Positions 5,022-39,090 of a stretch of 64,000 nt of DNA are shown here, one piece after another. The notes beneath the pieces are model-generated. The model did no database searches, had not been told where the DNA came from, and was given only the letters and a program-made list of their open reading frames with translations. Origin of the DNA: an uncultured Rhodanobacteraceae bacterium. GTDB lineage: Bacteria > Pseudomonadota > Gammaproteobacteria > Xanthomonadales > SZUA-5. The position numbers were made by a program, and so were the translations under genes. Location of the stretch: positions 21,541 to 85,540 of the forward strand of contig CALEZI010000117.1 of assembly GCA_937928755.1 (NCBI GenBank). Reading direction: 5' to 3'. Numbering within the stretch: position 1 is the first letter of the stretch; each line of letters opens with the position of its first letter.

Positions 5022-5951
5022 ATGCACCCGCGCAACCGCCACCAGGACCGCTACGATTTCGCACTGCTGACGCGTGCCTGGCCGCCGCTCAAGGCGCACC
5101 TGGTACGCACGCCGGACGGAGATTCGAGCATCGATTTCGCCGCACCGGCAGCCGTGCGTGCGCTCAATCGCGCGCTGCTGCAGAGCCAGTACGGCATCAC
5201 CGGGTGGCAATTCCCCGACGGTTATCTGTGTCCACCGATACCCGGGCGGGCCGACTATGTGCACGGCCTCGCCGACCTTCTGGCCGAGTGCAATGGCGGC
5301 GTCATCCCGCGCGGACCGGCGATTCGCGCGCTCGATATCGGTACCGGCGCCAGTTGCATCTACCCGCTGCTCGGTCACGCCGAATACGGCTGGAGCTTTG
5401 TCGGCTCGGAGGTCGACGCTGCTGCGCTTTGCGCCGCGCGGGAGATCGTTGCCGCCAATGCCGGCCTGGACAAGTCCATCGAATTGCGTCGGCAAGCCGA
5501 CCCTGGCTCGATCCTGAAGGGGGTGATCTTGCCCGGCGAACGCTTCGATGTGACGTTGTGCAATCCGCCGTTCCATGCCTCCGCCGCCGACGCCGCAAGC
5601 GCCAACGCCGAGAAGTGGCAGAAGCTTGGCCGCACTGCCGGGTCGCGCGCACGCCCGAAGCGCAACTTCGGTGGCCAGAGTCGGGAGTTGTGGTGTCGCG
5701 GCGGAGAAGTCGCCTTCGTGCGCCAGATCATCACCGAGAGTGCCGGACTGGCGACGTCGGCGTTCTGGTTCACCAGCCTGATCGCCAAGGCAGCCCATCT
5801 GGCGAGCCTCAAACAGCATTTGCAGAAAGTCGGCGCGCTCGACGTGCGCACGGTGACCATGGCGCAGGGGCAGAAGCAAAGTCGCTTTCTGGCCTGGAGT
5901 TTTCTCGATTCGGAGCAGCGCGCCTTGTGGAGGCGCGAGCACTGGGCCTGA
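5022..5951 (+). CDS. rlmF: 23S rRNA (adenine1618-N6)-methyltransferase
   Basis: HPRNRH..RYDF...DF..P.AV.ALN.ALL......W..PDGYLCPPIPGRADYVH.LADLL and the NPPFH catalytic motif match E. coli RlmF/YbiN as I remember it. Confidence 0.85.
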   Translation: MHPRNRHQDRYDFALLTRAWPPLKAHLVRTPDGDSSIDFAAPAAVRALNRALLQSQYGITGWQFPDGYLCPPIPGRADYVHGLADLLAECNGGVIPRGPAIRALDIGTGASCIYPLLGHAEYGWSFVGSEVDAAALCAAREIVAANAGLDKSIELRRQADPGSILKGVILPGERFDVTLCNPPFHASAADAASANAEKWQKLGRTAGSRARPKRNFGGQSRELWCRGGEVAFVRQIITESAGLATSAFWFTSLIAKAAHLASLKQHLQKVGALDVRTVTMAQGQKQSRFLAWSFLDSEQRALWRREHWA

Positions 5952-5952
5952 T

Positions 5953-6015
5953 GTGGGAGCGACCTTGCGTCGCGAGTTTCCACAGCCAAAGCTCGCGACA
6001 CAAGGTCGCTCCCAC
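5953..6015. repeat. REP-type palindrome (GTGGGAGCGACCTTGCGTCGCGA ... TCGCGACACAAGGTCGCTCCCAC)
   Basis: Imperfect inverted repeat directly after the rlmF stop. A near-identical copy lies at 24425-24487 and related copies at 9370-9433, 25284-25335 and 39805-39875. Confidence 0.8.
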
Positions 6016-6979: not shown

Positions 6980-7890
6980 GCCTGCCGCTCGAGTTCTCGC
7001 CCGAGGTTCGCGCCGCGCTGGATGCCGGCGCGCCGGTGGTCGCGCTGGAATCGACCATCATCACCCACGGCATGCCATTCCCGCAGAACCGCGACACCGC
7101 TCTGGCCGTAGAGGCGGAGGTGCGTGCGGCGGGCGCCACACCGGCAACCATCGCGGTGATGCATGGCCGTATCCACATTGGCCTCAGTGCCGATGCCCTC
7201 GATCGGCTGGTGATCGCACCTGATCCGTTGAAGCTGTCGCGCGCCGACCTCGCCGTATGTCTGGCGCAAGGTCGCGTTGGCGCGACAACGGTTGCCGCCA
7301 CCATGATCTGCGCACATCTGGCCGGCATCCCGGTGTTCGCAACCGGCGGCATCGGCGGCGTGCATCGCGGCGCCGAGACCAGCTTCGACGTCTCCGCCGA
7401 TCTTAACGAGCTGGCGGCAACACCAGTCAGCGTGGTCGCCGCCGGCGCCAAGGCGATCCTCGATCTGCCGAAGACGCTGGAGGTGCTGGAAACACTCGGC
7501 GTTCCGGTGATCGCGTTCGGGCAGGACGCATTCCCGGCCTTCTGGTCGCGGGATTCCGGCCATCGCGCGCCGCTGCGCCTCGACAGCGCCAACGCTATTG
7601 CCGCCGCGCATCTGATGCGCCGCCGGCTCGGTCTGCCCGGCGGCCAGCTGATTGCCAATCCGATACCGCCGGACGCTGAAATCCCGCGCAGCGAAATCGA
7701 TCCGACGATCACTGCCGCATTGATCGAAGCCAAAACGCAAGGGATCGCGGCAAAAGCGGTCACACCCTTCCTGCTCGGGCGCATCTTCGAGCTGACCATG
7801 GGCCGGTCGCTGACCGCCAACATCGCACTGGTGCGCAACAACGCACGGCTCGCGGCCGCAATCGCCATCGAGATCGTCCGGCAGCGTTGA
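6976..7890 (+). CDS. psuG: pseudouridine-5'-phosphate glycosidase
   Basis: VVALESTIITHGMPFPQN, ATTVAATMI.A.LAGI.VFATGGIGGVHRGAE.SFD.SADL.ELA and VVAAGAKAILDL match E. coli YeiN/PsuG. The track ORF (6694) is over-extended into psuK, and the GTG at 6976 fits the family's N-terminus. Confidence 0.9.
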   Translation: MSLPLEFSPEVRAALDAGAPVVALESTIITHGMPFPQNRDTALAVEAEVRAAGATPATIAVMHGRIHIGLSADALDRLVIAPDPLKLSRADLAVCLAQGRVGATTVAATMICAHLAGIPVFATGGIGGVHRGAETSFDVSADLNELAATPVSVVAAGAKAILDLPKTLEVLETLGVPVIAFGQDAFPAFWSRDSGHRAPLRLDSANAIAAAHLMRRRLGLPGGQLIANPIPPDAEIPRSEIDPTITAALIEAKTQGIAAKAVTPFLLGRIFELTMGRSLTANIALVRNNARLAAAIAIEIVRQR

Positions 7891-8048
7891 TCACCGGCAC
7901 TCAGGGGCAGCGCCGACGTCGGCGTTGAGGACGGGGATGCTGCTCAGGGCCGACCCGACACTTGCACATCCGCCGAGTCGCTGGCTTCGGTGCGCACATT
8001 GCGCGCACCAAACCGTCAGCGACTACGGAGTCTTTATTGGTCCGCAAA

Positions 8049-8180
8049 GGACCCTCTGAACAAGTCCCGCGACTCGTCATTGCGAGCGCAGCGAAGCAAT
8101 CCAGGCATTTGATTTTCAGAGCATTTCTGGATTGCCGCGTCGCTTCGCTCCTCGCAATGACGACTTGTTCAGAGGTTCCT
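8049..8180. repeat. MITE-like 132-bp palindromic element (CATTGCGAGCGCAGCGAAGCAATCCAG core)
   Basis: The left arm GGACCCTCTGAACAAGTC..TCGTCATTGCGAGCGCAGCGAAGCAATCCAG pairs with the right arm CTGGATTGCCGCGTCGCTTCGCTCCTCGCAATGACGACTTGTTCAGAGGTTCC. There is no coding potential. Confidence 0.7.
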
Positions 8181-8295
8181 GAAGGATGGAAGGGAAATTG
8201 ATTCAATGGCTTAGAGAATGTTCGTTGAGAGTCATGGTCGCCCCTGTCGGTGCGCTTGTTCGCGCATCAAACTGGTGGCGACCATGCGGTCTGCC

Positions 8296-8420
8296 TTTTT
8301 GTCCGCAAAGGACGCAAAGAGAGCCAAGAACCCAGGTGTTGATGTACTGCTTTCCTTTGCGTCCTTTGCGTCCTTTGCGTCCTTTGCGTCCTTTGCGTCC
8401 TTTGCGTCCTTTGCGGAAAA
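8296..8420. repeat. family-A k-mer-arm hairpin element, with 7 perfect tandem copies of TCCTTTGCG (8353-8415)
   Basis: The left arm TTTTTGTCCGCAAAGGACGCAAAGAGAGCCAAGAA has about 3 degenerate units. The right arm is (TCCTTTGCG)x7 followed by GAAAAA. The loop is about 20 nt. Confidence 0.85.
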
Positions 8421-8577
8421 AGCTTTTCTTTCAGATACTTGCGTATTGTCCGGCGAGAGTGGTCACTCGCACCGCTGAACATCCGTCCATGCGGCAGGTC
8501 AACAGATGTTCAACACGCATGCGGGTAAAATGTCGCCCATCGTTGTACTCACCTTGCCTCTTTCAGGAGTGGTCTCC

Positions 8578-9327: not shown

Positions 9328-9369
9328 GTCAGGTTGCGCGCAGCGCGACCCGGACACTCGAACCCAACC

Positions 9370-9433
9370 GTGGGAGCGGACTTGTCCCGCGAGCAATGCG
9401 ACCTTGAAACTCGCGACCCAAAGTCGCTTCCAC
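9370..9433. repeat. REP-type palindrome (GTGGGAGCGGACTTGTCCCGCGA variant)
   Basis: Inverted repeat GTGGGAGCGGACTTGTCCCGCGAG ... CTCGCGACCCAAAGTCGCTTCCAC. Confidence 0.7.
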
Positions 9434-9772
9434 ACGCTCCCTGAGGGGGGCGCAGCCCATTCCTCCAACGCCGGCTGAACCGCCGACGCCGAATTCGCTG
9501 TATTTCGCACATTCATTGAAGACGCAACCGACCCGATTCGTGGATACTCCGCGACCGCGAAGCGTGTAGACCTGCAAAGGTGTGCGCATCCGCGCCACCT
9601 CGGCTTGAACGCCGCGTGCAAGGCGACGGCGAGCGCTCCGCGCAAGACCGACATGCGCGACCTTGACCGGTCGTACCGTTGTTTCCGAAAGATCGGCGCT
9701 GTTGCTGGGCGCGGCTTTTCGGGCCTCACGTTTCCAAGTTTTCTAAAAAACTTCCATTGAAGAGACCAGAAC

Positions 9773-12094: not shown

Positions 12095-12541
12095 ATGATC
12101 AACACGACAGGCCGCACCACGCTGCGAATCATCGCCACGCTGTGGGCGCTGCCGAACTCGCTCGTGGGTCTGGTCTATGGCGGCGTTGGACTTTGCTGCG
12201 GAGCGCGACACGAATGGGATGCGAGTGGCCGCATCCTGCGCTTTGTCGACATGCCGTCCTGGCTGATGCCGACAGCGATATCGCTCGGACATGTGCAAGT
12301 GTATGCCGGTGGTCGTTGCAAGCGAGCGGATGGCAGCCCGGCAGCGAACCGTTTCGGCGTTCCCGTGATGATCGAAGAAACCCTGCATACACGGCAGGCA
12401 GAAATTCTCGGCCCGTTGTACCTGCCACTGCATGGGCTTTGCATGCTTGTCTCGATCATCGCCGGTGGCGGCACGCACGATCGCAACCTGCTCGAAATCG
12501 GCCCCGAGCGCGGGCGAGGGCCGTGGCCATGGCAGGCCTGA
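12095..12541 (+). CDS. hypothetical protein
   Basis: 148-aa ORF with a hydrophobic N-terminal segment. I recognise no family, and coding status is not certain. Confidence 0.35.
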   Translation: MINTTGRTTLRIIATLWALPNSLVGLVYGGVGLCCGARHEWDASGRILRFVDMPSWLMPTAISLGHVQVYAGGRCKRADGSPAANRFGVPVMIEETLHTRQAEILGPLYLPLHGLCMLVSIIAGGGTHDRNLLEIGPERGRGPWPWQA

Positions 12542-12682: not shown

Positions 12683-13765
12683 ATGTCCGAACTTCGCCTG
12701 CCTGCCGAACTGAAATACGCCGCCGAATTGGCAGCGCTGGAAGCGAATGATGATGCGGCCCGACCGCCCCAGTGGCGGCTCAGCCCGAGGGCGGTCGAGA
12801 CCTATGTGATGGGCAGCGCCAAGCCGGTCGGCGGGGTTGCCATCACACCCAAGTATTACGGCGACCGCTCGCTGGTGCAGGTGGCCATCGCGACGTTGGC
12901 ATCGGACCGTGCACTGATGCTCGCAGGCGAGCCGGGCACGGCGAAAAGCTGGTTGTCCGAGCATCTGTCGGCGGCAATCTGCGGCACATCGTTGCTGACC
13001 GTACAGGGCACTGCCGGCACCAGCGAGGATCATCTGAAGTATGGCTGGAACTACGCATTGCTGATCGCCGAGGGTCCGAGCGAACGCGCGCTGGTGCCGT
13101 CACCGGTGTTGCGCGCGATGCGCCAGGGCAAGATCGCACGGGTCGAGGAAATCACCCGCACCAGTCCGGAGGTGCAGGACGCCTTGATTTCGATCCTGTC
13201 CGAGAAGCAGATCGCGGTGCCGGAGTTGAATGAAACCGTCAGCGCACAGCGCGGATTCTCGATCATCGCCACCGCCAACACGCGCGACCGCGGCGTCAAC
13301 GAGATGAGTGCCGCACTGAAACGGCGTTTCAACTTTGTCACCGTGCCGGTGGTGGATGACCTCGACCAGGAGATCCGCATCGTGCAGCAGCGTGAAGCGC
13401 AGTTGCGCAGCGACTATCAGGTCGGCGCGCCGCCACCGGACGATTTGACCCGGCTGTTGGTCACGGTCTTCCAGGAGTTGCGTGGCGGTGCCACCAAGGA
13501 CGGCAAGACCAAGGTGCGCGCGCCGAACGGCGTGCTGTCGACGGCAGAAGCCATCAGCGTGCTGTTCAACAGCGGCATCCTGGCGCAAAGCTTCGGCGAC
13601 GGCACGGTCAACGGCGCCGATCTGGCGCGTGCACTCACCGGCGCGCTGGCCAAGGAAGGCGTCGAGGATCTGAAAGTGCTGCGCGAGTACCTGGAGACCG
13701 TCGCCAAAGCACGCAGCGGCGCCTGGAAGGGATTTTACGCGGCGGCCAAGCAGGCGCTCACTTGA
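12683..13765 (+). CDS. AAA+ ATPase of the AAA_5 / MoxR-CbbQ-NorQ-dynein-like class (YehL-like)
   Basis: Walker A LAGEPGTAKS, Walker B-like KIARVEEI, sensor-1 IIATAN, and arginine-rich SAALKRRF. Confidence 0.8.
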   Translation: MSELRLPAELKYAAELAALEANDDAARPPQWRLSPRAVETYVMGSAKPVGGVAITPKYYGDRSLVQVAIATLASDRALMLAGEPGTAKSWLSEHLSAAICGTSLLTVQGTAGTSEDHLKYGWNYALLIAEGPSERALVPSPVLRAMRQGKIARVEEITRTSPEVQDALISILSEKQIAVPELNETVSAQRGFSIIATANTRDRGVNEMSAALKRRFNFVTVPVVDDLDQEIRIVQQREAQLRSDYQVGAPPPDDLTRLLVTVFQELRGGATKDGKTKVRAPNGVLSTAEAISVLFNSGILAQSFGDGTVNGADLARALTGALAKEGVEDLKVLREYLETVAKARSGAWKGFYAAAKQALT

Positions 13766-13822
13766 ATCTCCTGGACTCGCCATTGCGAGATCCCATTCCC
13801 GACCTGGAAATGAACACAGGCC

Positions 13823-13972
13823 GTGAACCGCTCATCCTGAGCAGAGCGTCCGCTTCATCAGGACGCGGCGTCGAAGGACGAGCAAGAGCCTCCAATTCGC
13901 CTCATTCACGGCCTGCCCTTCGACGCCGCATCCCGGTGGAGCCGGGATGCTCTGCTCAGGGCGAACGGTGCC
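13823..13972. repeat. MITE-like nested inverted repeat (GTGAACCGCTCATCCTGAGCA ... TGCTCAGGGCGAACGG)
   Basis: The outer arms pair, and the inner GCGTCGAAGGACGAG pairs with CCTTCGACGCCGC. A second copy lies at 21321-21478. Confidence 0.7.
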
Positions 13973-14022
13973 TTGTGGATTTCAATGGCGGGTATGAAAC
14001 CAACCCGTAGACTCCCTGACCC

Positions 14023-16377
14023 ATGAACCTCACCGGCGTGCATCTGTTCCCGGTGCGACATCACTCGCCGCGGGCGGCGATGTGCCTGCGGGCGCTGCTC
14101 GATGAGGTACGTCCGTCGCTGGTGTTGATCGAGGGACCGAGCGATGCCGATGCGTTGATCCCGGTTCTCACCGCGGCAGATTCGATTCCGCCGATTGCGA
14201 TCCTGGCCTATCGCACCGATGGCACGCCGCAGAGCGCGATGTGGCCGTTCGCGCGCTATTCGCCGGAGTACCAGGCCTTGCTGTGGGCGCGTGACCACGG
14301 GGTGACGGCGCGCTTCATCGACTGGCCGTCGGGTGTGGCATTGGCAGCCGACCTGCCGTGCGCGCCGGTTGCGGCGAGCGTGCCCGACGAGACGCCCGAC
14401 GACGCCGTCGAAGAGTCTTTCGAAGCAGACCGTGTGGAGCCTGCAAGTGAAGAGGAAGCGCAGGCGCCCCCGGTCGATCGCCATCAGGCGCTCGCTGAAC
14501 GCTTCGACTTGCGTCATTTCGACGAATTCTGGGACGCTTACTTCGAGACGCCGATCTACCAGCCGGAGTCCTTCCGTACCGCGCTCAACGCGTTCGCCGA
14601 GTGGGTCGCACCAGCCGCAGGACGCGACACCGAGAGTGCGCTGCGTGATCGCATCATGGGCCAGGCGATCGCCGATGCGGTGAACGCCGGCACGCCTCCG
14701 GAGCGCATTGTTGCCGTGCTCGGCGCTGCGCACGTGGCGGCGCTGCTGCGCGGCGATCCAGCGCCCGACGCCAACGTACCGACCGCATTGCCGACAGCGC
14801 TGGCGGTGGTGCCCTACTCCTATCCACGCCTGTCCGAACAGAGTGGCTATGGCGCTGGCAACCGCGCGCCGTGGTACTACGAGCGCGTGTTCGAAGGCGC
14901 CAACGATTTTGCCCGCGCATCGTTGGTGGTGTTGATCGAGTTCGCCGGCAACATGCGCGCGCGCGGATTTTCGGTGTCGCTGGCGGATGTGATCGAGGCC
15001 TATCGACTGGCGCTGACGCTCGCTGATATTCGCGGTAAATCGGCACCCGGCGTCGACGAACTCGCCGAAGCCGCGCAAGCCACATTGACGCGCGGCGAAG
15101 CGGCGCCGATCCGCGAGTTCCTCAACCCGCTGATGATCGGACGGCGCATCGGCAAGCTCGGCGCCAGCGCCGGTCGCAACTCGCTGCAACTCGAGTTTGC
15201 GCAAGGGCTGGCCACCTACGGCCTGCCGCAGGTCGACGAGCCGGAAACCGTGTCGCTGCGCCTGGCCGACGCCACCCAGGCCGGCGCCAGCCTGTTCCTG
15301 CATCGCTTGCGCGTCGCCGACGTGCCCTACGCCAGCTACGCCGGTTCACAATCGGTGGTCACGCGCGGCCGCGCCAGCGACGACGAAGCTGGCGGCTACA
15401 GCGCATTGAGCCGTATGCGCGAGCATTGGGACGTGCAATGGACGCCGGCGACCGAAGTCGCGCTGGCCGAACGCGTGATCTACGGCGAGCGCTTTTCCGA
15501 GGTCTGCGAGCGACGTCTGAACGAGGCCATCGGCAGCGCCGCACACGCGGCCGATGCCACCCGCTTGCTGATCGACGCGGTGCTCACCGATGCCACCCAG
15601 GCCACCGCGCGTGCGCTGGACGCCACCGAACGTCTGAGCAGTCTGGACGACGACGTCGGCAGCCTGAGTCAGGCGGCGCGCACGCTGGCCGCGCTGAAGA
15701 GCTACGGCAGCTCGCGTCCGGCGCTGACGCAGATCGCCGGCACCATCGAACGTTTGCTGGTCGGCACCTTCACTCGCGCGATGCTGCGCCTCGCCATCGC
15801 CAGCCGCGGCGATGTCGAAGCGACGCAGGACGCGCGCGCAGCGATGCGCGTGCTCAACGAACTGGCGTTGTCGCAAGCGCTGCTCGACCGCGGCGCCTGG
15901 ATGCAGACGCTGACACAAATTGCCGGCGACGAAGCCCTGGAGGCAACCGCCAGCGGCGTTGCCGCGGCCTTGTTGTACCTGGCGCGCGAGTTGCACGAAA
16001 ACGATCTGCGCGGCCTGCTCGAGCGCCGCCTCGGCGATGTCATCCGCCCGGCCCGCGCGGCCGATTTTCTCGCCGGTTTTTTCGAGGTCAACGCGCTGGT
16101 ACTGCTGAAGAACCGCGAGATCGTCGCTGCGATGAGCGGCTTTCTGTCAGCGCTGCCCGCCGAGCACTTCCGCGATGCGCTACCCGCGCTGCGCCGAGCA
16201 TTTGCCTTGCTCGGCGCCAGCGAGCGGCGTTTCCTGCTGGAACATCTGGTCGGCCTGCACGGGCGCGCCGCGCCAGCGGTTGCCGCGCAGGTGCTCACCG
16301 CAGCAGACCAGCAGTCGCTGACCGATCTCTCGGCCACGCTGGGACAGGCGCTCGACGATCTGGATGATTTGCTGTGA
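14023..16377 (+). CDS. large DUF5682-like protein (YehM-like)
   Basis: 784 aa. I recognise the N-terminal VHLFPVRHHSPRAA...LIEGPSDA as DUF5682/YehM-type. The rest is helical with no other known domain. Confidence 0.6.
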   Translation: MNLTGVHLFPVRHHSPRAAMCLRALLDEVRPSLVLIEGPSDADALIPVLTAADSIPPIAILAYRTDGTPQSAMWPFARYSPEYQALLWARDHGVTARFIDWPSGVALAADLPCAPVAASVPDETPDDAVEESFEADRVEPASEEEAQAPPVDRHQALAERFDLRHFDEFWDAYFETPIYQPESFRTALNAFAEWVAPAAGRDTESALRDRIMGQAIADAVNAGTPPERIVAVLGAAHVAALLRGDPAPDANVPTALPTALAVVPYSYPRLSEQSGYGAGNRAPWYYERVFEGANDFARASLVVLIEFAGNMRARGFSVSLADVIEAYRLALTLADIRGKSAPGVDELAEAAQATLTRGEAAPIREFLNPLMIGRRIGKLGASAGRNSLQLEFAQGLATYGLPQVDEPETVSLRLADATQAGASLFLHRLRVADVPYASYAGSQSVVTRGRASDDEAGGYSALSRMREHWDVQWTPATEVALAERVIYGERFSEVCERRLNEAIGSAAHAADATRLLIDAVLTDATQATARALDATERLSSLDDDVGSLSQAARTLAALKSYGSSRPALTQIAGTIERLLVGTFTRAMLRLAIASRGDVEATQDARAAMRVLNELALSQALLDRGAWMQTLTQIAGDEALEATASGVAAALLYLARELHENDLRGLLERRLGDVIRPARAADFLAGFFEVNALVLLKNREIVAAMSGFLSALPAEHFRDALPALRRAFALLGASERRFLLEHLVGLHGRAAPAVAAQVLTAADQQSLTDLSATLGQALDDLDDLL

Positions 16378-16446
16378 GCCGGCGTATTCGCTTCCAACAC
16401 TGTGCTGATCTGCACCTCGAACTGAGCGGCAATCTCGGGGGACTGG

Positions 16447-16582
16447 TTTTTTGTCCGCAAAGGACGCAAAGAACGCAAAGGAGAGCAAAGGCGTCAGGGG
16501 TGCGGCGCATGAACATCGAGCCCCAAAACGCTAACTTTCGCATGGCTTTCTTTGCGTCCTTTGCGTTCTTTGCGAACAAAGA
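16447..16582. repeat. family-A k-mer-arm hairpin element
   Basis: GTCCGCAAAGGACGCAAAGAACGCAAAGGAGAGCAAAGG ... CTTTCTTTGCGTCCTTTGCGTTCTTTGCGAAC, with a loop of about 55 nt. Confidence 0.85.
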
Positions 16583-16608
16583 CTCCTGCCCAATGAACAG
16601 CGAGAAGC

Positions 16609-17802
16609 ATGATGGAGCCTGAAGCCGCCGCCGCCCTGCTGCGCTGGCGACTGGTGCTCGGGGCTGAGGCCGAGCGTGCTGAGCCCTTGCTGGGTTTGAG
16701 CGCGCTGTGCGCACAGTGCGGGCCCGCGGCGGAAGACGTGGTGGCGATGACCGAGGCCGAACTTGAAGCGCTCGATGACACGCTCGACTTTGTCTACGGC
16801 GCCGGTCGCAAGAGTGGGCTGACTGCCTATCTGCCGCGCTGGCTGGAGCGCGTGCGCGGCTTCTTCACCGCCGATGTCGTCGCGTTGGTGCAGAAGGATG
16901 CAATCGAGAAGAAGGGGCTGACGCGCCTGCTGTTCGAGCCGGAGACCCTGCCGTACCTGGAGAAGAATGCCGATCTGGTCGCCACGCTGCTGTCGGCGCG
17001 CGCGCTGGTGCCGGACGAGGCGAAGGAAATCGCGCGGGGTATCGTGCGCGAGGTGGTCGAGCAGTTGCGCAAGAAGCTGGAGACGGCGACGCGTACGGCG
17101 CTGATCGGCGCGGTCAAGCGCCATTCGCGCAGCCCGTTCAAGGTCGCCCGCAATCTCGACTGGAAGCGCACCGTGCAGCGCAATCTGCACACCTACGACC
17201 ACAACAAGCGTCGGTTGGTGCCGGAGTCTTTCCACTTCCTCGCCAACCGGCGCAAGCGCCACGAATGGGAGGTGGCGATCCTGGTCGACCAGTCCGGTTC
17301 GATGGCGGTCAGCGTGGTCTACAGCGCGATCATGGCGGCGATCTTCGCCTCCATCGACGTGCTGAAGACGCGTCTGGCCTACTTCAACCACGACACCGTG
17401 GTCGACATGACACCGCATCTGGTGGATCCGGTCGAAGTGCTGTTCAGCGCGCAACTTGGCGGCGCAGAGAACTACAACCTGGCGCTCGATTACGCCAAGG
17501 AACATTTCCTCGAGCGCCCGGACAAGACCTTGGTGCTGCTGATTACCGATCTCTATCACACGGCCGGCAACAACGAGCGTTTTCTGTTGCAGGTGCAGGA
17601 GATGATCGACTCCAAGGTCAAGTTCATGGTCCTGCTCAAGCTCTCAGACGCCGGCCAGCCCAGTTACGACCATGACCTGGCAAAGAAACTGGTCGCCCTG
17701 GGCGCCCATTGTTTCGGCGCCTCACCCAAACAACTGGTGGAGATCGTCGAACGCATCATGAAGAACCAGCCCTACGATCACCTGGCGCAAAACCCGAAAT
17801 GA
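16609..17802 (+). CDS. VWA (MIDAS) domain protein (YehP-like / CoxE-type)
   Basis: MIDAS-type motif EVAILVDQSGSM in the C-terminal half, followed by a Rossmann-like alternation. The N-terminal helical region is of the kind seen in AAA-partner VWA proteins. Confidence 0.75.
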   Translation: MMEPEAAAALLRWRLVLGAEAERAEPLLGLSALCAQCGPAAEDVVAMTEAELEALDDTLDFVYGAGRKSGLTAYLPRWLERVRGFFTADVVALVQKDAIEKKGLTRLLFEPETLPYLEKNADLVATLLSARALVPDEAKEIARGIVREVVEQLRKKLETATRTALIGAVKRHSRSPFKVARNLDWKRTVQRNLHTYDHNKRRLVPESFHFLANRRKRHEWEVAILVDQSGSMAVSVVYSAIMAAIFASIDVLKTRLAYFNHDTVVDMTPHLVDPVEVLFSAQLGGAENYNLALDYAKEHFLERPDKTLVLLITDLYHTAGNNERFLLQVQEMIDSKVKFMVLLKLSDAGQPSYDHDLAKKLVALGAHCFGASPKQLVEIVERIMKNQPYDHLAQNPK

Positions 17803-17824
17803 ATCCGGCGTCGTTCCGCCGCTT

Positions 17825-18293
17825 TTGTAGGCCGCTGTGCCGCGTAGCGGCTCACCGGCGCAGCGATCAAAGCGCCGGTGAGCGCGATGAAACTGCGCAC
17901 ACGCGGCCTACAAAAGAACTTGCGCGTACACCCGTGAACCACAGCTCTGGTAGACCGCTGTGCCGCGTAGCGGCTCACCGGCGCAGCGACCAAAGCGCCG
18001 GTGAGCGCGATGAAGCTGCGCACACGCGGCCTACAAGAGCACTTGCGCATACACCCGTGAACCACAGCTCTGGTAGACCGCTGTGCCGCGTAGCGGCTCA
18101 CCGGCGCAGCGACCAAAGCGCCGGTGAGCGCGATGAAGCTGCGCACACGCGGCCTACAAGAGCACTTGCGCATACACCCGTGAACCATCGCTCTGGTAGG
18201 CCGCTGTGCCGCGTAGCGGCTCACCGGCGCTTTCCCTGCGGTCGTGACCAAAGCGCCGGTGAGTGCGATGGAGCTGCGCACACGCGGCCTACA
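17825..18293. repeat. tandem array, about 3.8 copies of a 123-bp unit, each unit a nested hairpin
   Basis: Units start at 17825, 17948, 18071 and 18194. Units 2 and 3 differ at only about 2 positions. Each has an inner stem GCTCACCGGCGC/GCGCCGGTGAGC and outer GTAGGCCGC...GCGGCCTAC. Unit 4 carries a small indel. Confidence 0.9.
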
Positions 18294-18328
18294 TTCGAAT
18301 CCACGACTTTTCGACCAAGGTCAACCCG

Positions 18329-21226
18329 ATGTCTGACATCCCGAATCTCCCCGTGAACCAGCTCAAGCTGGTCGTCAGCGACGCCCAGGAACTGGCCAAG
18401 GGCATGTCGATTGCCGACAAGGGCGGCATCCGCCATCTGGCGCGACATGGCAACAAGCTTTACGCCGAGGCCGATGGCAGCGGCGCGACGCCGTACAAGG
18501 CGCAGATCGTGCACGACGACAAGGGCTGGCGCGGACGCTGTTCGTGCATGGCAGCGCGCAGTCGGCCCTTCTGCAAGCACGCCGCCGCGCTGCTGGTGGC
18601 CTGGTCGCGCGACCCGGCTGCGTTCGCGGTGGCCGAGGCGCCGCCGGCGGTCGCAACTGGCGAACCCGGCAGCGAGGCCAAACGCGCCAAGCCGAAGACC
18701 GGCAAGGTCGATGCCAATGCGCTGATGCGCCAGGGCATCGAGCAGACCCTGAACCTGGTGCGTGAACTGGCGTTGTCTGGCATCAGCACGATCAGCGCCG
18801 AGCGTGTGGCGCAGATCCGCGCGCTGGCAGAAACCCTGCGCGCCGAACGCCTGCGCCGGATCAGCGCGCGGCTGCTGGAACTGGCCGGGCTGCTGGATAC
18901 CGCGGTCGCCGACTTCGGCCTGCTCGACTCAGAAGCTTACGCCGCAGCACTCACCGACATCAGCCTGAGCGCGCGACGAGTCAGCCGTCATCTGGACGGC
19001 AGCGATCCGCTCAAACCGGAATACGTCGAGACGCTGATCGGCAAGACCTGGACCAAAAAAGACCGTGCCGACGCGGGCAAGCTCGATCTGATCGAGTACG
19101 CCTTCATCCACGAGATCACCGCCGACGACTACGTCATCCGCGAGAGTCGTTTCGTCGACCTGGCGAGCGGTACGCACTACAGCGAGAAACAGATCCTGCC
19201 GGCCTTCCTGGCCAAGCGCACGGCGCCCAAGCGCAGTTACGCCGGATTCGTGTTGCGCGGCGCCGGCGGCGGGCGTTATCCGGGTTTCGCGCCGCTGCGC
19301 CTCGACCTTGCCGAGGAGGGTCGATTCGATGAACCGGCGGCTGGCGATTTCGCGGGCGTGCTCGCCAATGCGCTGCCGAGCGTAAGCGCGGCGCTTGCGA
19401 CGCTCGCCGAGGCGCGCAAGGACGTGTTCGGCGCCGACAGCGTGCCGGTAGCCATTCGCCTGGATTCGCTGTACGCCGAGGGCGAGCGCCTGTTTGCCGT
19501 GGATGGCGGCGGCGACAGTCTGTTGATCGGCGGCGGTACGGACACCGTGATGGCGGTGACTCAGGCGCTGACCCAGGCCGAGCTCAAGTGCGTGCTCGGC
19601 GATCTGCTGCTGCTTGGCGCGATGCCATGCCTGAATCCCCTGGCGCTGGTCATCGAACGCGCCGGGCAGGTGGAATTGGTGCCGCTGCCTGTCGTCGACC
19701 AGACCACGTTGCTGCGTCAACGCAAGCTCAAGCGCGTGGGCAAGCGCGAACGCTGGATCGACAGCGCGCGTGAGTTGGGTGTGAACGCTGCGGCGCTCGT
19801 TCTCGGCGAAGTGCGCGAGGAACTTGCCGATACCTTGAGCGAAGGCCTGAGTGCCTTGGGAACACGACGCGCTGACGGCATGGTCAGTCGACTGCAGGGA
19901 TTGGGCCTGGCGAAGCCGGCGGCCTTGCTCGCCGAAGTCGCCCAGCGCGCAGATCCGGCAGAGAAACTCGACGACGTGCTGCGTCTGCTGCAGGTGCTCG
20001 GCATCGGCCTGACGCGCCTCGCGGCCAGCAAGAAGATCGACCGTTCCACACTGGTGCGCTCGCCGCTGCACCCGGCCATCGAGGTACTGCCGCCGGATGT
20101 GCATCTGGAGCCCGCCGATCTGCTGGCCGAACTGGGATCGAGCCGATTGCAGGGTCACAGTCGCGCAATCGCCATCGATCGCGCACTGGCCGCTTACGAC
20201 TCCGATACGCTCGCGCAACTGGCGCCAATGCTGTTCGCCGATGGCAGTGTCTGCGGGTTGGTCGTCGGGCGTTATGCGGCGCATCCGGAGCTGGCCATGG
20301 AACTGGCGCAACACGCGCTGAGCGCCAATCCGTCGCGCATTCGCCGCTGGACCGTCGAGTCCGCGTACGCCGACCAGGCGCGTGTTGCCAAGTTGACCGC
20401 GATCCTGCTGCTGCAAACACTGGCAACGCCAGCGGCGCGCGAGGTGTTGCGTCAGTTCCGCGATCAGCGACGTCCGGATCCCGCGCTCAAGGCGATGGCC
20501 AACTGGGCGCTCGAACCCGCGCATGCGCCGGAAGTCCGCCCGGAGTTGCTTGCCGGGCTGAATGCCCCCAACCGCGACGAGCGCATCCAGTACCTGCAAA
20601 AGATCGGCCAGAACGGCGCGATCGCCGCAATCCATTCGGTACGCCTGGTTGCCGCCAGCGACGCCAGCATGCCGGTGCGCTACAGCGCCTGGGCGACGCT
20701 GGCGCTGCTGCTCGACGTCGGTGTCGTGCCGATGCTGATCGGCAAGCTGCAGGACCGCCGCAATGACGACGACGCGGCGCGCGAAGCGGCGCACGCGCTC
20801 GGTCTGCTCGGCGACAGTCGCGCGATCGGTCCACTGCTGGCGGCATTCACCGAAGCTTTCAAGCCGGCGATCATCGCCGACAGCTTGCGCGCCATTGGGC
20901 CCGCTGTGCTGCCCGCACTGGTCGACCATGTCGATCGTCAGCCCGAACTGGCGGAGCGCAAGGTCGCGCAGGAACTGGTCATCGGTGTCGGCGCGGAGCT
21001 GTCGCGCGATTTTCTCGCCGCGCGGCTGCAGCAGGTACCGCAAGGTGACCTCGTGGCGTGCGCGCAGCGCTATCTCAAGCTGGCCAGCGGTGCGACCCAG
21101 TTGAAGCTTTGGGTTGCCGATGCCGTCGAGGCACGCGTGACGGCAGACGGCGCCGAAGTCCCGGCCGAGCTCAAGAAGATCCTGAGTCGGGCGCGTGTTC
21201 CACCCAAGGCACGTGCGAAAGCGTAG
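18329..21226 (+). CDS. SWIM zinc-finger protein with long helical body and C-terminal HEAT/PBS-lyase-like repeats (YehQ-like, extended)
   Basis: SWIM motif CSCMAARSRPFCKHAAALL. The C-terminal repeats include AAREAAHALGLLGDSRAIGPLL. I chose the ATG at 18329 because the track start (18263) lies inside the tandem repeat. Confidence 0.7.
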   Translation: MSDIPNLPVNQLKLVVSDAQELAKGMSIADKGGIRHLARHGNKLYAEADGSGATPYKAQIVHDDKGWRGRCSCMAARSRPFCKHAAALLVAWSRDPAAFAVAEAPPAVATGEPGSEAKRAKPKTGKVDANALMRQGIEQTLNLVRELALSGISTISAERVAQIRALAETLRAERLRRISARLLELAGLLDTAVADFGLLDSEAYAAALTDISLSARRVSRHLDGSDPLKPEYVETLIGKTWTKKDRADAGKLDLIEYAFIHEITADDYVIRESRFVDLASGTHYSEKQILPAFLAKRTAPKRSYAGFVLRGAGGGRYPGFAPLRLDLAEEGRFDEPAAGDFAGVLANALPSVSAALATLAEARKDVFGADSVPVAIRLDSLYAEGERLFAVDGGGDSLLIGGGTDTVMAVTQALTQAELKCVLGDLLLLGAMPCLNPLALVIERAGQVELVPLPVVDQTTLLRQRKLKRVGKRERWIDSARELGVNAAALVLGEVREELADTLSEGLSALGTRRADGMVSRLQGLGLAKPAALLAEVAQRADPAEKLDDVLRLLQVLGIGLTRLAASKKIDRSTLVRSPLHPAIEVLPPDVHLEPADLLAELGSSRLQGHSRAIAIDRALAAYDSDTLAQLAPMLFADGSVCGLVVGRYAAHPELAMELAQHALSANPSRIRRWTVESAYADQARVAKLTAILLLQTLATPAAREVLRQFRDQRRPDPALKAMANWALEPAHAPEVRPELLAGLNAPNRDERIQYLQKIGQNGAIAAIHSVRLVAASDASMPVRYSAWATLALLLDVGVVPMLIGKLQDRRNDDDAAREAAHALGLLGDSRAIGPLLAAFTEAFKPAIIADSLRAIGPAVLPALVDHVDRQPELAERKVAQELVIGVGAELSRDFLAARLQQVPQGDLVACAQRYLKLASGATQLKLWVADAVEARVTADGAEVPAELKKILSRARVPPKARAKA

Positions 21227-21320
21227 CAGTGCCCACTGGCCATCAACCGCCAAATCGTCATTGCGAATCAGCCTTGGCGATTGTGGCAAACGCTCCATCC
21301 GCGCAGCGCATCCAGCGACA

Positions 21321-21478
21321 TTGAACCCGCTCATCCTGAGCAAGGCATCCAACGCTCCATCAGGATGCGTCGTCGAAGGACGAGCAGGGCCTCCAGGACG
21401 TCGCACACCGATCGCCCCGCGGCACCCTTCGACGCCGCATCCCGATGAAGCCGGGATGCCCTGCTCAGGGTGAACGGC
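21321..21478. repeat. MITE-like nested inverted repeat, second copy of the 13823-13972 family
   Basis: TTGAACCCGCTCATCCTGAGCAAGGCATCC ... GGGATGCCCTGCTCAGGGTGAACGG, with the same inner GTCGAAGGACGAG/CTTCGACGCCGC pair. Confidence 0.7.
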
Positions 21479-21544
21479 TCACAAATTCAATAACTTACGA
21501 TATCGGCTCTTGGAGAGCTGAGCTTACTCGGCTGGGAGAGCGAC

Positions 21545-24345: not shown

Positions 24346-24424
24346 TTCCCTGCACTCTCCGTCCGAGCCTTCGGCACATTGTAGCGACAACCTGTCTACC
24401 GGTGTCATTCAATGGTGCGGACCT

Positions 24425-24487
24425 GTGGGAGCGACCTTGCGTCGCGCGCTCTCACTTTCAGCGCTCGCGACACAAGGTCGCTCCCAC
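24425..24487. repeat. REP-type palindrome, near-identical to 5953-6015
   Basis: GTGGGAGCGACCTTGCGTCGCGCG ... GCTCGCGACACAAGGTCGCTCCCAC. Confidence 0.8.
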
Positions 24488-24621
24488 ATGGGCCATTGCG
24501 CGAACAAGCGCCGCAGCAGGGATGACCGGACCACTCAAGGATCTCCAACCGCGACACCCGAGCGCCGTTGGTCGTGTCACCATATCCGCCCGTCCCGATC
24601 GCCTGCCGAAGGAATCACCCG

Positions 24622-25275
24622 ATGAATCCGACTGCAATTTCGCGCCGCCAGATGCTGCAAGGGAGCCTGGGCACCATTGCCCTGGTCGCCACCAGCCCAC
24701 TGTTGTCCGAGACCCGTGGGGCAACGCCGTCGCAGACCGAGGGTCCGTTCTTCCCGACCCGCGACCAGGCCGACAAGGACATCGACATGACGCTGATCGA
24801 GGGTCATGCCGAGCATGCCCTTGGCGAGGTGGTCGAGATCAGCGGCCAGGTGTTGGCCGAGGACGGCACGCCGATCGCCAATGCACTGGTGGACGTCTGG
24901 CAAGCCAACAGCCACGGCCGTTACGCGCATGAACGCGACACCAATACGGCGCCGCTGGACCCGAACTTCCAGGGTTGGGCGCAGTTCACGACGGATGCGC
25001 AGGGCCGCTATCGGGTCAAGACGATCAAACCGGGTGCCTATCCGGTCGACAAGGGCTGGTCACGACCACCGCACATCCACTTCAAGGTGGCGCTGCGCGG
25101 CTATCACGAGCTGACCACGCAGATGTATTTCGCCGGCGACTCGCTGAACGACATAGACCGTTTGTTGCAGGCGTTGTCCGCCGATGAGCGCAGTCGCGTC
25201 GTCGTTGCCTTTTCAGCTGCAGCGGAGAAAAGCGCGCCGCACGGTCAGTTCGATCTGGTGCTGCGCAAAGTTTGA
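24622..25275 (+). CDS. intradiol ring-cleavage dioxygenase family protein with Tat signal
   Basis: Twin-arginine signal SRRQMLQGSLGTIALVA. TEGPFFP, ALVDVWQANSHGRY, and PPHIHFKV with the Y/H iron ligand pattern. Confidence 0.75.
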   Translation: MNPTAISRRQMLQGSLGTIALVATSPLLSETRGATPSQTEGPFFPTRDQADKDIDMTLIEGHAEHALGEVVEISGQVLAEDGTPIANALVDVWQANSHGRYAHERDTNTAPLDPNFQGWAQFTTDAQGRYRVKTIKPGAYPVDKGWSRPPHIHFKVALRGYHELTTQMYFAGDSLNDIDRLLQALSADERSRVVVAFSAAAEKSAPHGQFDLVLRKV

Positions 25276-25283
25276 CGCCCGCT

Positions 25284-25335
25284 GTGGGAGCGGGTTTATC
25301 CCGCGAAAGCTGTCGCGGAGTAAATCCGCTCCCAC
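25284..25335. repeat. REP-type palindrome (GTGGGAGCGGGTTTATCCCGCGA variant)
   Basis: Inverted repeat immediately after the dioxygenase stop codon. Confidence 0.75.
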
Positions 25336-25404
25336 TTGAAAATCAAGGCCTTACGGCATATTCGAAAAGAGTCCGTGCCTTGTTCGCGCAACGAACATCT
25401 TGAG

Positions 25405-25484
25405 GTAGGTCACCTTGGCCGCGTGGCGGCCTACGTGATAACGCCGACTGTCACGTAGTCTGCTGCGCAGACAACGTGACCTAC
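25405..25484. repeat. 80-bp nested palindrome (GTAGGTCAC...CTACGTGA..TCACGTAG...GTGACCTAC), copy 1
   Basis: Two nested stems, with the outer arm GTAGGTCAC pairing GTGACCTAC. It sits 28 nt downstream of the iorB-like stop. Confidence 0.8.
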
Positions 25485-28298: not shown

Positions 28299-28424
28299 GG
28301 TCGGCCCTCGCGATGGCGAAGACCGATCGTAGCGCCGCCCGGTGGCGGGCGCACCGGTCGGAGGTCATGTGGGAGTCCCGGTCGCCCCTGTCGATGCGCT
28401 TATTCGCGCAAAGAACACACGGAA

Positions 28425-28504
28425 GTAGGTCACGTTGCCTGCGCAGCAGGCTACGTGACGCTGTCCATTGTCACGTAGCCCGCTGCGCAGGCAACGTGAC
28501 CTAC
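28425..28504. repeat. 80-bp nested palindrome, copy 2 (same family as 25405-25484)
   Basis: GTAGGTCACGTTGCCTGCGCAGCAGGCTACGTGACGCTGTCCATTGTCACGTAGCCCGCTGCGCAGGCAACGTGACCTAC. It sits upstream of the iorA-like start. Confidence 0.8.
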
Positions 28505-28565
28505 AAATAAATACTCTACAATCAAACGTTTAGAGGATGTTCTGTGAAAGGCGGAACAGCCAATA

Positions 28566-28676
28566 GTCCGCAAAGGACTCAAGGGACGCAAAGAAAGCAC
28601 AATCGTGGATGCGTTCAGCCGGAGCGATTCCCGTTCAACACTTCCCTTTGCGTCCTGTGTGTCGTGCGGACAAAAA
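28566..28676. repeat. family-A k-mer-arm hairpin element (degenerate copy)
   Basis: AGTCCGCAAAGGACTCAAGGGACGCAAAGAAAGC ... CCCTTTGCGTCCTGTGTGTCGTGCGGAC. Confidence 0.7.
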
Positions 28677-28775
28677 GAAGGGGAACGATATCGCCACTGG
28701 TCGAGTTGGCGACGCGTTCCCCGGGTAGACACCCAGCGCGCGACTGGAACAATCCAGTCGCGCGCCGGGAAACGC

Positions 28776-38087: not shown

Positions 38088-38200
38088 GTTCCGGTTCTTC
38101 TCCTCACAATCATCCGACGGGACGAAGCTCTTGAGGGAGCGACGTGCACGTCGCGACCGATCGCCCGCCGGGGGCCGTGGTCGCGACGTTCACGTCGGTC

Positions 38201-38800
38201 CTACAAAATCGAGCTGTTCTTTGCGATTTGCCGATTGTCCAGCGTCGTGTCGGGTACCCTGCCCCCGAACACTCGCTCCTTCATCTCCAGCAACTTGACC
38301 ACCTTGCCGCCGAGCGCCATCAGCGACTGCAGGGTTTCCGGTGACAGCTTGCGTACCTCGGCGAACCAGTCGGTGATCTGCTCGATCAACTCGTGCATGC
38401 GCCGCATGCGCTCCTGCGCGTAGACGTCCTCCGGGGAACCGGCCGTCTCCAGCAAGGCATCGCGCAGCATCGACAGCGTTGGATCGACCTCGCGCCGCTG
38501 GCGTTCCTCGGCGAGCGTGCGGAAGATCTGCCACACATCCTCGGGCGCGCTGAAAAAGTCGCGACGATCGCTCGGCCGATGTTCCAGCTTGACCAGACGC
38601 CAGGATTGCAGCTCTTTCAAGCCCATGCTGACGTTGGAGCGCGACACGCCGAGGCGCTCGACGATGTCGTCGGCGGTCAGCGCATCGCGACTGATGTAGA
38701 GCACGGCGTAGATCTGCCCAACCGTTCGATTGATTCCCCAACGGCTGCCCATCTCACCGAAGTGCAGCACAAAGGACTGGCTCAGCGGATGCAGGTTCAT
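38201..38800 (-). CDS. GbsR/MarR-type winged-helix transcriptional regulator
   Basis: GINRTVGQIYAVLYIS...LTADDIVERLGVSRSNVSMGLKELQSWRLV matches the GbsR-family wHTH as I recall it. It is co-directional with and upstream of cydAB. Confidence 0.7.
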   Translation of the reverse strand: MNLHPLSQSFVLHFGEMGSRWGINRTVGQIYAVLYISRDALTADDIVERLGVSRSNVSMGLKELQSWRLVKLEHRPSDRRDFFSAPEDVWQIFRTLAEERQRREVDPTLSMLRDALLETAGSPEDVYAQERMRRMHELIEQITDWFAEVRKLSPETLQSLMALGGKVVKLLEMKERVFGGRVPDTTLDNRQIAKNSSIL

Positions 38801-38813
38801 ACCTTTCCCGTAA

Positions 38814-38831
38814 TTTCAGTAATTACTGAAA
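38814..38831. promoter_or_regulatory. perfect 18-bp palindrome TTTCAGTAATTACTGAAA, candidate operator
   Basis: It lies 13 nt upstream of the regulator's ATG (38800) in an AT-rich patch, which is a typical autoregulatory operator position. Confidence 0.5.
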
Positions 38832-38840
38832 CTTCGGAAT

Positions 38841-38859
38841 GAATAATGCGAATCATTGC
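38841..38859. promoter_or_regulatory. Fur-box-like sequence GAATAATGCGAATCATTGC
   Basis: About 13 of 18 positions match the GATAATGATAATCATTATC consensus by eye. It lies upstream of the palindrome in the regulator-cydAB promoter region. Confidence 0.3.
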
Positions 38860-38945
38860 GTGAACGGTTCGTGGATGACCTTCGCGACTCACGTCTTCGA
38901 CGTGCGTGCCGCAGATCGAACTATCCGGCAGTTTGGTGAGCCGTT

Positions 38946-39080
38946 TTCTTGTCCGCCAAGGACGTAAAGAACGCAAAGGAAGTCAAGGGCTTGCTCGGAG
39001 ATGCCGGCCAGTTGGCACTTGCTGACAACCGTTGTCTTTCTGCTCTCCTTTGCGTCCTTTGCGTCCTTTGCGGACCAAAG
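38946..39080. repeat. family-A k-mer-arm hairpin element
   Basis: GTCCGCCAAGGACGTAAAGAACGCAAAGGAAGTCAAGGG ... CTCCTTTGCGTCCTTTGCGTCCTTTGCGGAC, with a loop of about 50 nt. Confidence 0.85.
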
Positions 39081-39090
39081 CCTTTGACCC

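Follow-up and report, generated by a model that had tools for sequence, protein, structure and literature searches.

Hairpin repeat families at the gene junctions of a yehLMPQ-type operon in an uncultured Rhodanobacteraceae bacterium: probable recent insertions and candidate bridge reading frames

In Escherichia coli, repetitive extragenic palindromic (REP) sequences and bacterial interspersed mosaic elements (BIMEs) are reportedly present inside operons, e.g., at malE-malF. BIMEs consist of REPs of ~35 nt in alternating orientation with defined linker motifs, and such stable palindromes between cistrons can alter relative expression in E. coli. The GTAG REPs carry GTAG tags and form head-to-head dimers that are reiterated in tandem together with flanking DNA; they are sited just 3' of open reading frames (ORFs), between co-directional genes, and in-frame copies are present in DnaE2 (Di Nocera et al. 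2013, PMC3733652). The present analysis concerns three stable palindromic elements in a 64-kb stretch of contig CALEZI010000117.1 from an uncultured Rhodanobacteraceae bacterium (the window, with a base composition of ~65% G+C). The elements occupy the three intergenic gaps of a four-gene operon of the yehLMPQ type. They resemble the E. coli palindromes in being located between cistrons, and differ in that they are hairpins of 130–230 nt, belong to three unrelated families and are inserted at junctions that formerly overlapped. The gaps most probably represent three independent, recent and lineage-specific insertions of hairpin repeats at tight junctions, which may have been tolerated through open bridge frames.

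The operon has four co-directional genes on the plus strand. The first, at positions 12683–13765, encodes an AAA_5 (MoxR/YehL-like) ATPase (Pfam AAA_5, E = 2e-40), the second, at 14023–16377, a DUF5682 (YehM-like) protein (Pfam DUF5682, E = 2e-125; 1775 homologues) and the third, at 16609–17802, a VWA_CoxE (YehP-like) protein (Pfam VWA_CoxE, E = 1e-35). All three matches are above the Pfam cut-offs. The fourth gene (18329–21226, start ATG at 18329) is at the YehQ position and encodes a SWIM/HEAT protein of 965 aa. It has a SWIM motif, CSCx8CKH (CxCx8CxH), at residues 71–84; the Pfam SWIM match is sub-threshold (11.5 bits vs the cut-off of 19.6) and the HEAT_2 match is weak, and the SWIM label was given because of the motif alone. 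Assignment of this 965-aa protein, with its HEAT-like repeats, as a YehQ orthologue by similarity was ruled out, as BLASTP against E. coli YehQ showed no similarity. The gene order, AAA(MoxR)-DUF5682-VWA-SWIM, is the domain order of E. coli yehL-yehM-yehP-yehQ. The sequence-only reading had described the enterobacterial cluster as tightly packed, and the spacings of yehL/M/P/Q in E. coli K-12 are indeed +10, -8 and -4. E. coli thus displays the ancestral tight packing and differs in that the three inserts are absent. A literature search on the biology of yehLMPQ gave nothing informative.

Gap 1 (13766–14022, plus strand) is 257 bp and is filled by an element termed El1a. Gap 2 (16378–16608, plus strand) is 231 bp and is filled by an element of a family termed family A, and gap 3 (17803–18328, plus strand), which is 526 bp, holds an array termed El3. 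The ORF coordinates give the same three gap lengths as the sequence-only reading had reported, and the inverted-repeat, tandem-repeat and folding analyses agree with its claim that each gap holds a different structured repeat. RNA folding of the spacers, a check which that reading had named, gave -125 kcal/mol for the whole of gap 1 (z = -7.9), -92 kcal/mol for gap 2 (z = -3.8) and -280 kcal/mol for gap 3 (z = -9.6), where dinucleotide shuffles are the reference for the z-scores. The individual elements fold at -60 to -120 kcal/mol. A search of the window with Rfam 15 showed no match at gathering thresholds, and a permissive scan gave only sub-threshold matches to microRNA precursors, which are due to the hairpin shape. 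The presence of repeats in three of three gaps was rejected as remarkable in itself, since 14 of the 40 gene junctions in the window are structured at z <= -3.5, and in two other places three gaps in a row are occupied. The unusual aspect is that junctions of zero length came to be occupied.

This is evident from a comparison with the orthologous cluster in 13 other lineages, in which DUF5682 is 60–85% identical to that of the window. Junction spacings were determined by tblastn and ORF extension for the AAA-DUF5682 (J1), DUF5682-VWA (J2) and VWA-SWIM (J3) junctions. The J1 spacing is between -4 and +15 nt in all 13 relatives; at J2 the genes overlap by 4 nt (GTGA/ATGA) in all but one of the 13, and J3 is -4 or -11 nt in 10 of 13 and +21 nt in one. 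The arrangement in the window had been thought to be lineage-specific, and this is borne out by the overlapping or abutting junctions of these relatives and of E. coli. Relatives with the same long gaps devoid of repeats would have spoken against that proposal; the gaps themselves are missing from the relatives. The source organism is a member of the Lysobacterales, and the nearest named relatives of the window are metagenome-assembled genomes (MAGs) of Lysobacterales and Rhodanobacteraceae. In a neighbour-joining tree of DUF5682 plus VWA, the window groups with lineage L008, whose three junctions are all tight. The same three inserts are found in contigs of 99.7–100% identity from at least three other metagenomes, with no accompanying frameshifts. 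The inserts are present in near-identical contigs and in none of the relatives, and therefore represent insertions that are fixed in the species and absent from its relatives.

The proteins encoded on both sides of the inserts are intact. The AAA protein is 81–95% identical to the orthologues of the relatives, and the fourth protein is 53–84% identical to the product of their fourth gene. The AAA protein has 360 aa, equal to that of the closest relatives; lengths are 784 aa vs 774–783 for DUF5682, 397 vs 396–402 for the VWA protein and 965 vs 959–976 for the SWIM protein. All four ORFs are full length and have conserved termini.

Inserts are also present at junctions of this operon in other lineages. 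A 253-nt insert at J3, with a REP dimer of the GTGGGAGCGGG type, is common to the sister lineages L020 and L009–L012, and in L009–L012 a family-A element has been added to it. A J3 gap of shared ancestry was ruled out: the J3 insert of the window has no homology to that of L020/L009, and the two are thus independent events. At J2 of L025–L027 (L025 positions 9353–9482; DUF5682 69% identical to the window) there is a 130-nt hairpin with z = -6.9, whose arms are arrays of an 8-mer similar to CACGAATC. Together with the three inserts of the window, these two bring the number of independent insertion events in the operon family to five.

A comparison of the sequences that border the five inserts shows an NTGA region on both sides in every case. 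In the window, J1 has CTTGAATCTC on the left and CATGAACCTC on the right, J2 has GTGAGCC and ATGATGGAGCC, and J3 has AACCCGAAATGA and AACCCGATG; the L020 J3 insert is bordered by GTGA and ATGA, and the L025 J2 insert by ATGA on both sides. Because the NTGA region stands on both sides, the upstream gene retains its stop and the downstream gene retains a start. The duplicated NTGA is either a true target-site duplication or merely what selection lets through. Candidate direct repeats that flank the inserts were found at J1 (TGAATCTC / TGAACCTC, or CTCCTGGAC / CTCCCTGAC), at J2 (GAGCC) and at J3 (AACCCGAAATG / AACCCGATG); between junctions their lengths are inconsistent and the matches are imperfect.

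The El3 array extends from position 17821 to 18293 on the plus strand and consists of four hairpins, each of the form GTAG...CTAC, as seen with Tandem Repeats Finder and from the sequence itself. The hairpins are at 17827–17911, 17950–18034, 18073–18157 and 18196–18292 and recur with a period of 123 bp. Tandem Repeats Finder gave 3.3 copies of the 123-bp period with 96% matches (17827–18230). The fourth hairpin has a 12-nt insertion in the loop and prolongs the array to 18293, for a total of ~3.85 units, in accord with the 3.8 units up to this position that had been noticed before. Each hairpin has a folding energy of ~-60 kcal/mol, and units 2 and 3 are 98% identical. An assembly artefact was ruled out as the origin of the array, since contigs L007 and L036–L038 enter it from both sides; L036 supports at least four hairpins. 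Contig L035 (positions 5598–6000), from a JGI assembly of the same strain, has three hairpins vs four in the window, in a gap of 403 nt vs 526 nt (17803–18328). The lower unit count could be a true copy-number variant of the 123-bp unit, or the middle units, being 98% identical, could have been collapsed in the assembly of short reads.

An exact-match scan of JGI metagenomes with one El3 arm revealed six further loci. These are single hairpins of 93–105 nt that are 82–86% identical and are found in unrelated contexts. In the nine aligned El3 copies, the GTAG start and the CTAC end are invariant (9 of 9) and the loop is variable. The stem has six covarying pairs. One of the copies, at positions 2261–2351 of contig L018 (JGI Ga0075163_10124624), is in frame within an ORF for DNA polymerase III alpha (dnaE2-like). 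It lies between the NTPase and finger domains and adds ~30 aa (...AGERDEAAHTRPT...), with the same strand and frame as those of bridge ORF 3, one of three ORFs described below that span the gaps of the window.

El3 shares many properties with GTAG REPs and with REPINs (PMC3733652; Bertels & Rainey 2011, PMC3116915; Nunvar et al. 2010, PMC2817692). These are the GTAG...CTAC ends, an imperfect hairpin with variable loop and covarying stem, tandem repetition with flanking DNA, a position just 3' of an ORF between co-directional genes, and an in-frame copy in a dnaE2-like gene. It differs in that the two halves of the hairpin are not copies of one short REP; matching is limited to the outermost 9 nt and the innermost 12 nt. 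It also differs in that whole dimers are arranged head-to-tail with a 123-bp period and in that no REP-associated tyrosine transposase (RAYT) gene is present among the ORFs scanned. Nor does gap 3 represent a BIME of the E. coli type: it is an array of head-to-tail hairpins of 93–105 nt, each followed by a linker of ~20–40 nt. A second family of GTAG...CTAC hairpins (GTAGGTCACGTTGCCTGCGCAGC...) is present at 28399–28504 and 25379–25484, the two copies being 77% identical. A further GTAG-tagged hairpin, at 38140–38203 on the minus strand, provides the TAG stop of a MarR-family gene (38201–38800). GTAG REPs that supply stop codons have been reported by Di Nocera et al. (PMC3733652).

The element in gap 2, on the plus strand, is ~200 bp in length and consists of a left module (~16385–16446) followed by a hairpin (16447–16582), as defined by its arms and by the left module it shares with other copies. 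The arms are 31 nt in length (16450–16480 and 16550–16580), are 90% complementary and are made of 9-mers of the GCAAAGGAC type. Family A is defined by this architecture, in which a left module of 60–70 nt precedes a hairpin with arms composed of GCAAAGGAC 9-mers in inverted arrays. The sequence-only reading had placed the hairpin correctly and had missed the left module, with which the element fills the gap; the 69 nt of gap 2 that lie beyond the hairpin are accounted for because the left module is common to family-A copies. Five copies are present in the window, at 8221–8424, 16385–16585, 28370–28677, 38916–39083 and 53941–54070, and a sixth is the one at the VWA-SWIM junction of the L009–L012 lineage. 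Conservation among the six copies extends to the 9-mer arms and to the ends, TTGTCCGCAAAGGAC.../...GTCCTTTGCGGACAA, and not to the centre; in copy number and terminal repeats the family is thus like a miniature inverted-repeat transposable element (MITE). On both strands there is a T-run 5' and an A-run 3' of the hairpin. Copies are also nested with other repeats: the GTAG hairpin at 28399–28504 lies within the left module of the copy at 28370–28677.

The number of 9-mers in family A varies between arms and between strains. The copy at 8221–8424 has strongly asymmetric arms (2–3 units vs 7), and in contig L007 it has one TCCTTTGCG unit fewer at 8353–8361 (right arm 7 vs 6). The window and L007 strains that differ by this one TCCTTTGCG unit are 99.75% identical. 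The 9-mer arrays of family A thus behave as variable-number tandem repeats. A literature search with the 9-mer arm sequence gave no paper.

Hairpins with arms of tandem repeats are also seen elsewhere. The hairpin at 62537–62684 of the window has arms of GGAAAAG/CTTTTCC 7-mers. At the same junction in L029 (3895–4065), from a Rhodanobacteraceae MAG in which the flanking protein is 92% identical, the arms are CGTGAAA 7-mers. Position 55779–55830 of the window is an array of seven CGTTTCA units. The hairpins with tandem-repeat arms (units of 9, 8 and 7 nt; family A, L025, L029 and window 62537) may represent an undescribed class of repeat that is recurrent in the clade.

El1a, in gap 1, is a MITE-like nested palindrome of ~230 bp on the plus strand (~13779–14007), recognized from its inverted repeats and its homologous copies. 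The core hairpin, at 13823–13972, has a folding energy of -92 kcal/mol by itself. It contains two inverted repeats, of 25 and 26 nt, one nested in the other (13827–13851/13945–13969 and 13852–13877/13917–13942). A second copy, El1b (approximately 21258–21518, plus strand), is 78% identical to El1a over the core and is ~30 nt past the stop of the SWIM gene, before a convergent carboxylesterase gene; the gap that holds it has z = -6.4. A third copy is found on a metagenome contig (L015), where it is nested within the loop of an El3 hairpin. The three-way alignment extends El1a to ~13779–14007, so that the MITE-like nested repeat previously assigned to 13823–13972 is present and is longer than had been claimed, filling the gap. 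The three copies are 76–78% identical and have the ends CATTG.../...CAATG, i.e., multiple copies with terminal repeats as in MITEs. The El1-in-El3 composite (L015 positions 1717–2050; JGI Ga0138256_10018877) fills a 363-nt gap and has stops in all three frames; its neighbours are co-directional genes for a cobalamin adenosyltransferase and a DUF6580 protein.

El1 and family A are similar to Correia elements and other MITEs (Snyder et al. 2009, PMC2649163) in that they are non-coding sequences of 150–250 bp with terminal inverted repeats, have several diverged copies, are inserted in intergenic regions and in one another, and differ in presence or absence between genomes. They differ in that there is no clear target-site duplication of fixed length and no parent insertion sequence (IS) is seen in the window. 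Family A further differs from a typical MITE by its arms of tandem 9-mers, non-conserved centre and asymmetric left module. Each of the three is a new family of a kind already known, El3 being an array of GTAG REP dimers, El1 a palindrome that resembles a MITE, and family A a less common hairpin with arms of tandem repeats.

The case for mobile insertion is made by the empty sites in relatives, the dispersal of the families, nesting, copy-number variation, the intact ORFs and the duplicated nucleotides at the junctions. Three observations point the other way. Only one El3 locus is present in the 64-kb window; no Y1_Tnp, RAYT or other transposase was found among 25 ORFs of the window and 10 ORFs beside El3 copies; and the target-site duplications are short or imperfect. 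Transposition of the REP/RAYT type is not known to duplicate its target. The ORF at 24568–25275, which is flanked by repeats, was considered as a transposase and ruled out, as it encodes a dioxygenase.

Each of the three gaps is spanned by an ORF on the plus strand. Bridge ORF 1 (13762–14010) has a TTG that overlaps the stop of the AAA gene (TTGA) and ends with TAG at 14008, 15 nt before the DUF5682 ATG at 14023 (12 nt in between). Bridge ORF 2 (16374–16622; 82 codons) has a GTG overlapping the DUF5682 stop (GTGA), runs through the whole family-A element and ends with TGA at 16620, 11 nt after the VWA ATG at 16609. Bridge ORF 3 (17799–18356; 185 codons) has an ATG overlapping the VWA stop (ATGA), runs through all four El3 hairpins and ends with TGA at 18354, 25 nt after the ATG at 18329. 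The starts of the J2 and J3 bridges are the ancestral starts of the downstream genes, with unchanged upstream context. At J1–J3 of the window the bridge frame is the only stop-free plus frame; the other two have 2–12 stops.

The two events in other lineages display the same architecture. The L020 J3 bridge extends from a GTG at 4040 to a TGA at 4298, which overlaps the new ATG at 4297. The L025 J2 bridge, already gene-called as a 45-aa ORF, extends from an ATG at 9349 to a TGA at 9484 that overlaps the ATG at 9483, so there is an ATGA overlap with both neighbours. The frame of the retained NTG is therefore open in all five events, and an overlapping start, an open frame and a stop beside the downstream start are present in five of five. 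The non-bridge plus frames have 1–12 stops, L020 excepted. In the window, a 127-nt gap on the minus strand (39775–39901), between genes for a TonB-dependent receptor and a PKHD/PiuC-type hydroxylase, holds a REP dimer. A frame that starts 1 nt upstream of the receptor stop is open and has its TGA 4 nt past the hydroxylase ATG. It is possible that this is a further bridge ORF.

The ancestral junctions represent the classic 4-nt ATGA/GTGA overlaps at which translation proceeds by termination and reinitiation (Huber et al. 2019, PMC6728339; review PMC12548453). Coupling normally weakens as stop and start move apart; in phage f1, for example, none is left at a spacing of +89 nt (PMC12548453). The open frames suggest how coupling might nevertheless be maintained over the inserts. 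The elements would be selfish passengers and not evolved regulators, and would be tolerated where the old start that overlaps the upstream stop is kept and opens a stop-free frame over the insert. Ribosomes would reinitiate at this retained start, translate the insert and melt the hairpins, then terminate between 15 nt before and 25 nt after the downstream start and reinitiate there. Translational coupling would thus be relayed over 230–530 nt in the window, in two steps, from upstream gene to bridge ORF and from bridge ORF to downstream gene. Inserts with an in-frame stop would be polar and hence lost. Judged from the reading frames, the hairpins are probably translated through and melted by ribosomes rather than left as static stem-loops. 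A more general rule is put forward tentatively and with some doubt: hairpin repeats at NTGA junctions may be kept only when no stop interrupts the frame set by the retained start, with relay ORFs of 45–185 codons that couple genes across 130–530 nt. Such a rule would explain both the five of five open frames and the units of 123, 12 and 9 nt that are divisible by three. Palindromic elements of Rickettsia (RPEs) and intragenic REPs (Di Nocera 2013) survive only when an ORF is kept through them, of which the El3 copy in L018 is a direct example; the inserts in the window differ in that the putative relay is a separate ORF between genes and not an insertion into a protein. A literature search gave no report of coupling via an intervening ORF made by insertion of a mobile element.

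A quite plausible alternative is that the inserts are neutral junk, the bridge frames are coincidental, and the downstream genes initiate de novo or are poorly expressed, with no relay. In dinucleotide shuffles at 65% G+C, a given frame is open over ~240 nt in ~17–25% of cases. Several other observations likewise weigh against a relay. In L020, two of the three plus frames are open; the pattern was spotted post hoc, with n = 5 events; and the relay at J1 would need a TTG start. A comparable bridge ORF is also present at 62537–62684, in a 148-nt gap that is not an ancestrally tight junction. It was rejected as a sixth case, since the spacers of relatives are 102–171 nt and have no bridge frame, and as a look-alike it indicates that some bridge-like ORFs arise by chance in DNA of 65% G+C. 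Against coincidence, the relevant frame is open in five of five independent events, for which the combined chance is 0.008 with random phase alone and 0.0015 when orientation is randomised as well, and the bridge stops lie from 15 nt upstream to 25 nt downstream of the start that follows. The period of the array (123 nt), the indel in its loop (12 nt) and the repeat unit of the family-A arms (9 nt) are each divisible by three. Ten further gaps of the window lie between same-strand genes and measure 171 nt or more, and the bridge frame is open in just one of them. The family-A copies between unrelated genes have no such bridge: at 38801–39090 there are stops in the equivalent frame, and at 53942–54112 the frame, though open, contains no start codon and does not close until 140 nt beyond the start of the downstream gene. 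Two stops interrupt the equivalent frame in the untranslated, intergenic El3 copies that lie elsewhere in the same orientation; no stop is present in the El3 copies of the window or of dnaE2.

The sequence-only reading had suggested that the stem-loops set mRNA stability or stoichiometry, as REP/BIME elements do, or that they decouple the genes transcriptionally. Both are less likely than selfish insertion. It is unlikely that the stem-loops are functional REP/BIME-type RNA elements that set mRNA stability or subunit stoichiometry in a co-transcribed operon. The very stable folds in all three gaps are compatible with such a role, as are the fixation of the inserts in all sampled strains, the location of the hairpins near the 3' ends of upstream ORFs, similar to transcribed 'uni-REPs' (PMC3733652), and the long, near-perfect stems, which are plausible substrates for RNase III or barriers to exonucleases (cf. 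Correia elements, PMC2649163). The proposal is not supported by the distribution of the repeats, since the inserts are absent from every relative, so that there is no conserved regulatory design, and copies of each family face either way with respect to the neighbouring genes and lie in every kind of intergenic context; the open frames from retained starts would also imply that ribosomes unwind the hairpins. Decoupling by terminators and/or outward promoters, which would make each gene its own transcription unit, is more improbable still. Some MITEs, e.g., Correia elements, do make promoters (PMC2649163), and there is one weak terminator-like structure, the sole one, 4 nt past the VWA stop: a 5-bp hairpin, CGGCGTCGTTCCGCCG, at 17806–17821 followed by CTTTTG. 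However, a scan of the three gaps for sigma-70-like promoters found none, and terminator-like matches do not exceed shuffle expectation (10 found vs 7.1 ± 2.8). No T-run (U-tract) follows the large hairpins of the three gaps, as a rho-independent terminator would have, and the T-run of family A lies 5' of the hairpin. By inspection, the displaced downstream starts have weak Shine-Dalgarno sequences or none, which argues against independent initiation. The least probable alternative, and a very improbable one, is that the operon is under inactivation, i.e., that the cluster is dispensable and is being pseudogenised by polar insertions. The four genes have indeed taken three hits, and the two further independent hits in the same cluster of relatives suggest weak constraint. 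The four full-length ORFs with conserved termini, the precise retention of stop and start at every insertion, and the identity of the inserts in several strains without frameshifts are evidence to the contrary, and insertion of selfish repeats with retention of open frames is the preferred explanation.

Other repeats and neighbouring sequences in the window were noted. REP dimers of a Pseudomonas-like type (GTGGGAGCGnnnTTnnnCCGCGA...TCGCGnnnnAAnnnCGCTCCCAC) are found at 5952–6015, 24424–24487 and 39803–39880, and also at 9368–9392 and 25282–25306. The same type of REP dimer is present at the VWA-SWIM junction in L009 (11610–11670) and L020 (4118–4178). A divergent intergenic region of 637 bp (7869–8505) is crowded with nested repeats, including the full family-A copy. 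Within it, 7990–8056 consists of a truncated family-A left module and a solo GGTCCGCAAAGGACC hairpin, and 8057–8177 is a palindrome of 120 nt with ends, GTCATTGCGAG/CTCGCAATGAC, that are similar to the El1 termini. Just 5' of the operon there is an ORF of 148 aa (12095–12541), which is called as a gene in L007 and has no Pfam match. Synteny 5' of the AAA gene is not kept in relatives.

The operon represents a natural example of colonisation by REP/MITE-like selfish DNA in which the empty sites are kept in relatives. Coupled junctions with 4-nt overlaps can be split by hundreds of bases with the flanking genes left intact. If the relay is true, it would provide a simple rule for which insertions at coupled junctions are tolerated, and intercistronic hairpins of this kind would be structures through which ribosomes translate instead of static elements of mRNA stability. 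In annotation, a short 'hypothetical' ORF between two genes of an operon, such as the 45-aa ORF of L025, may be a coupling relay.

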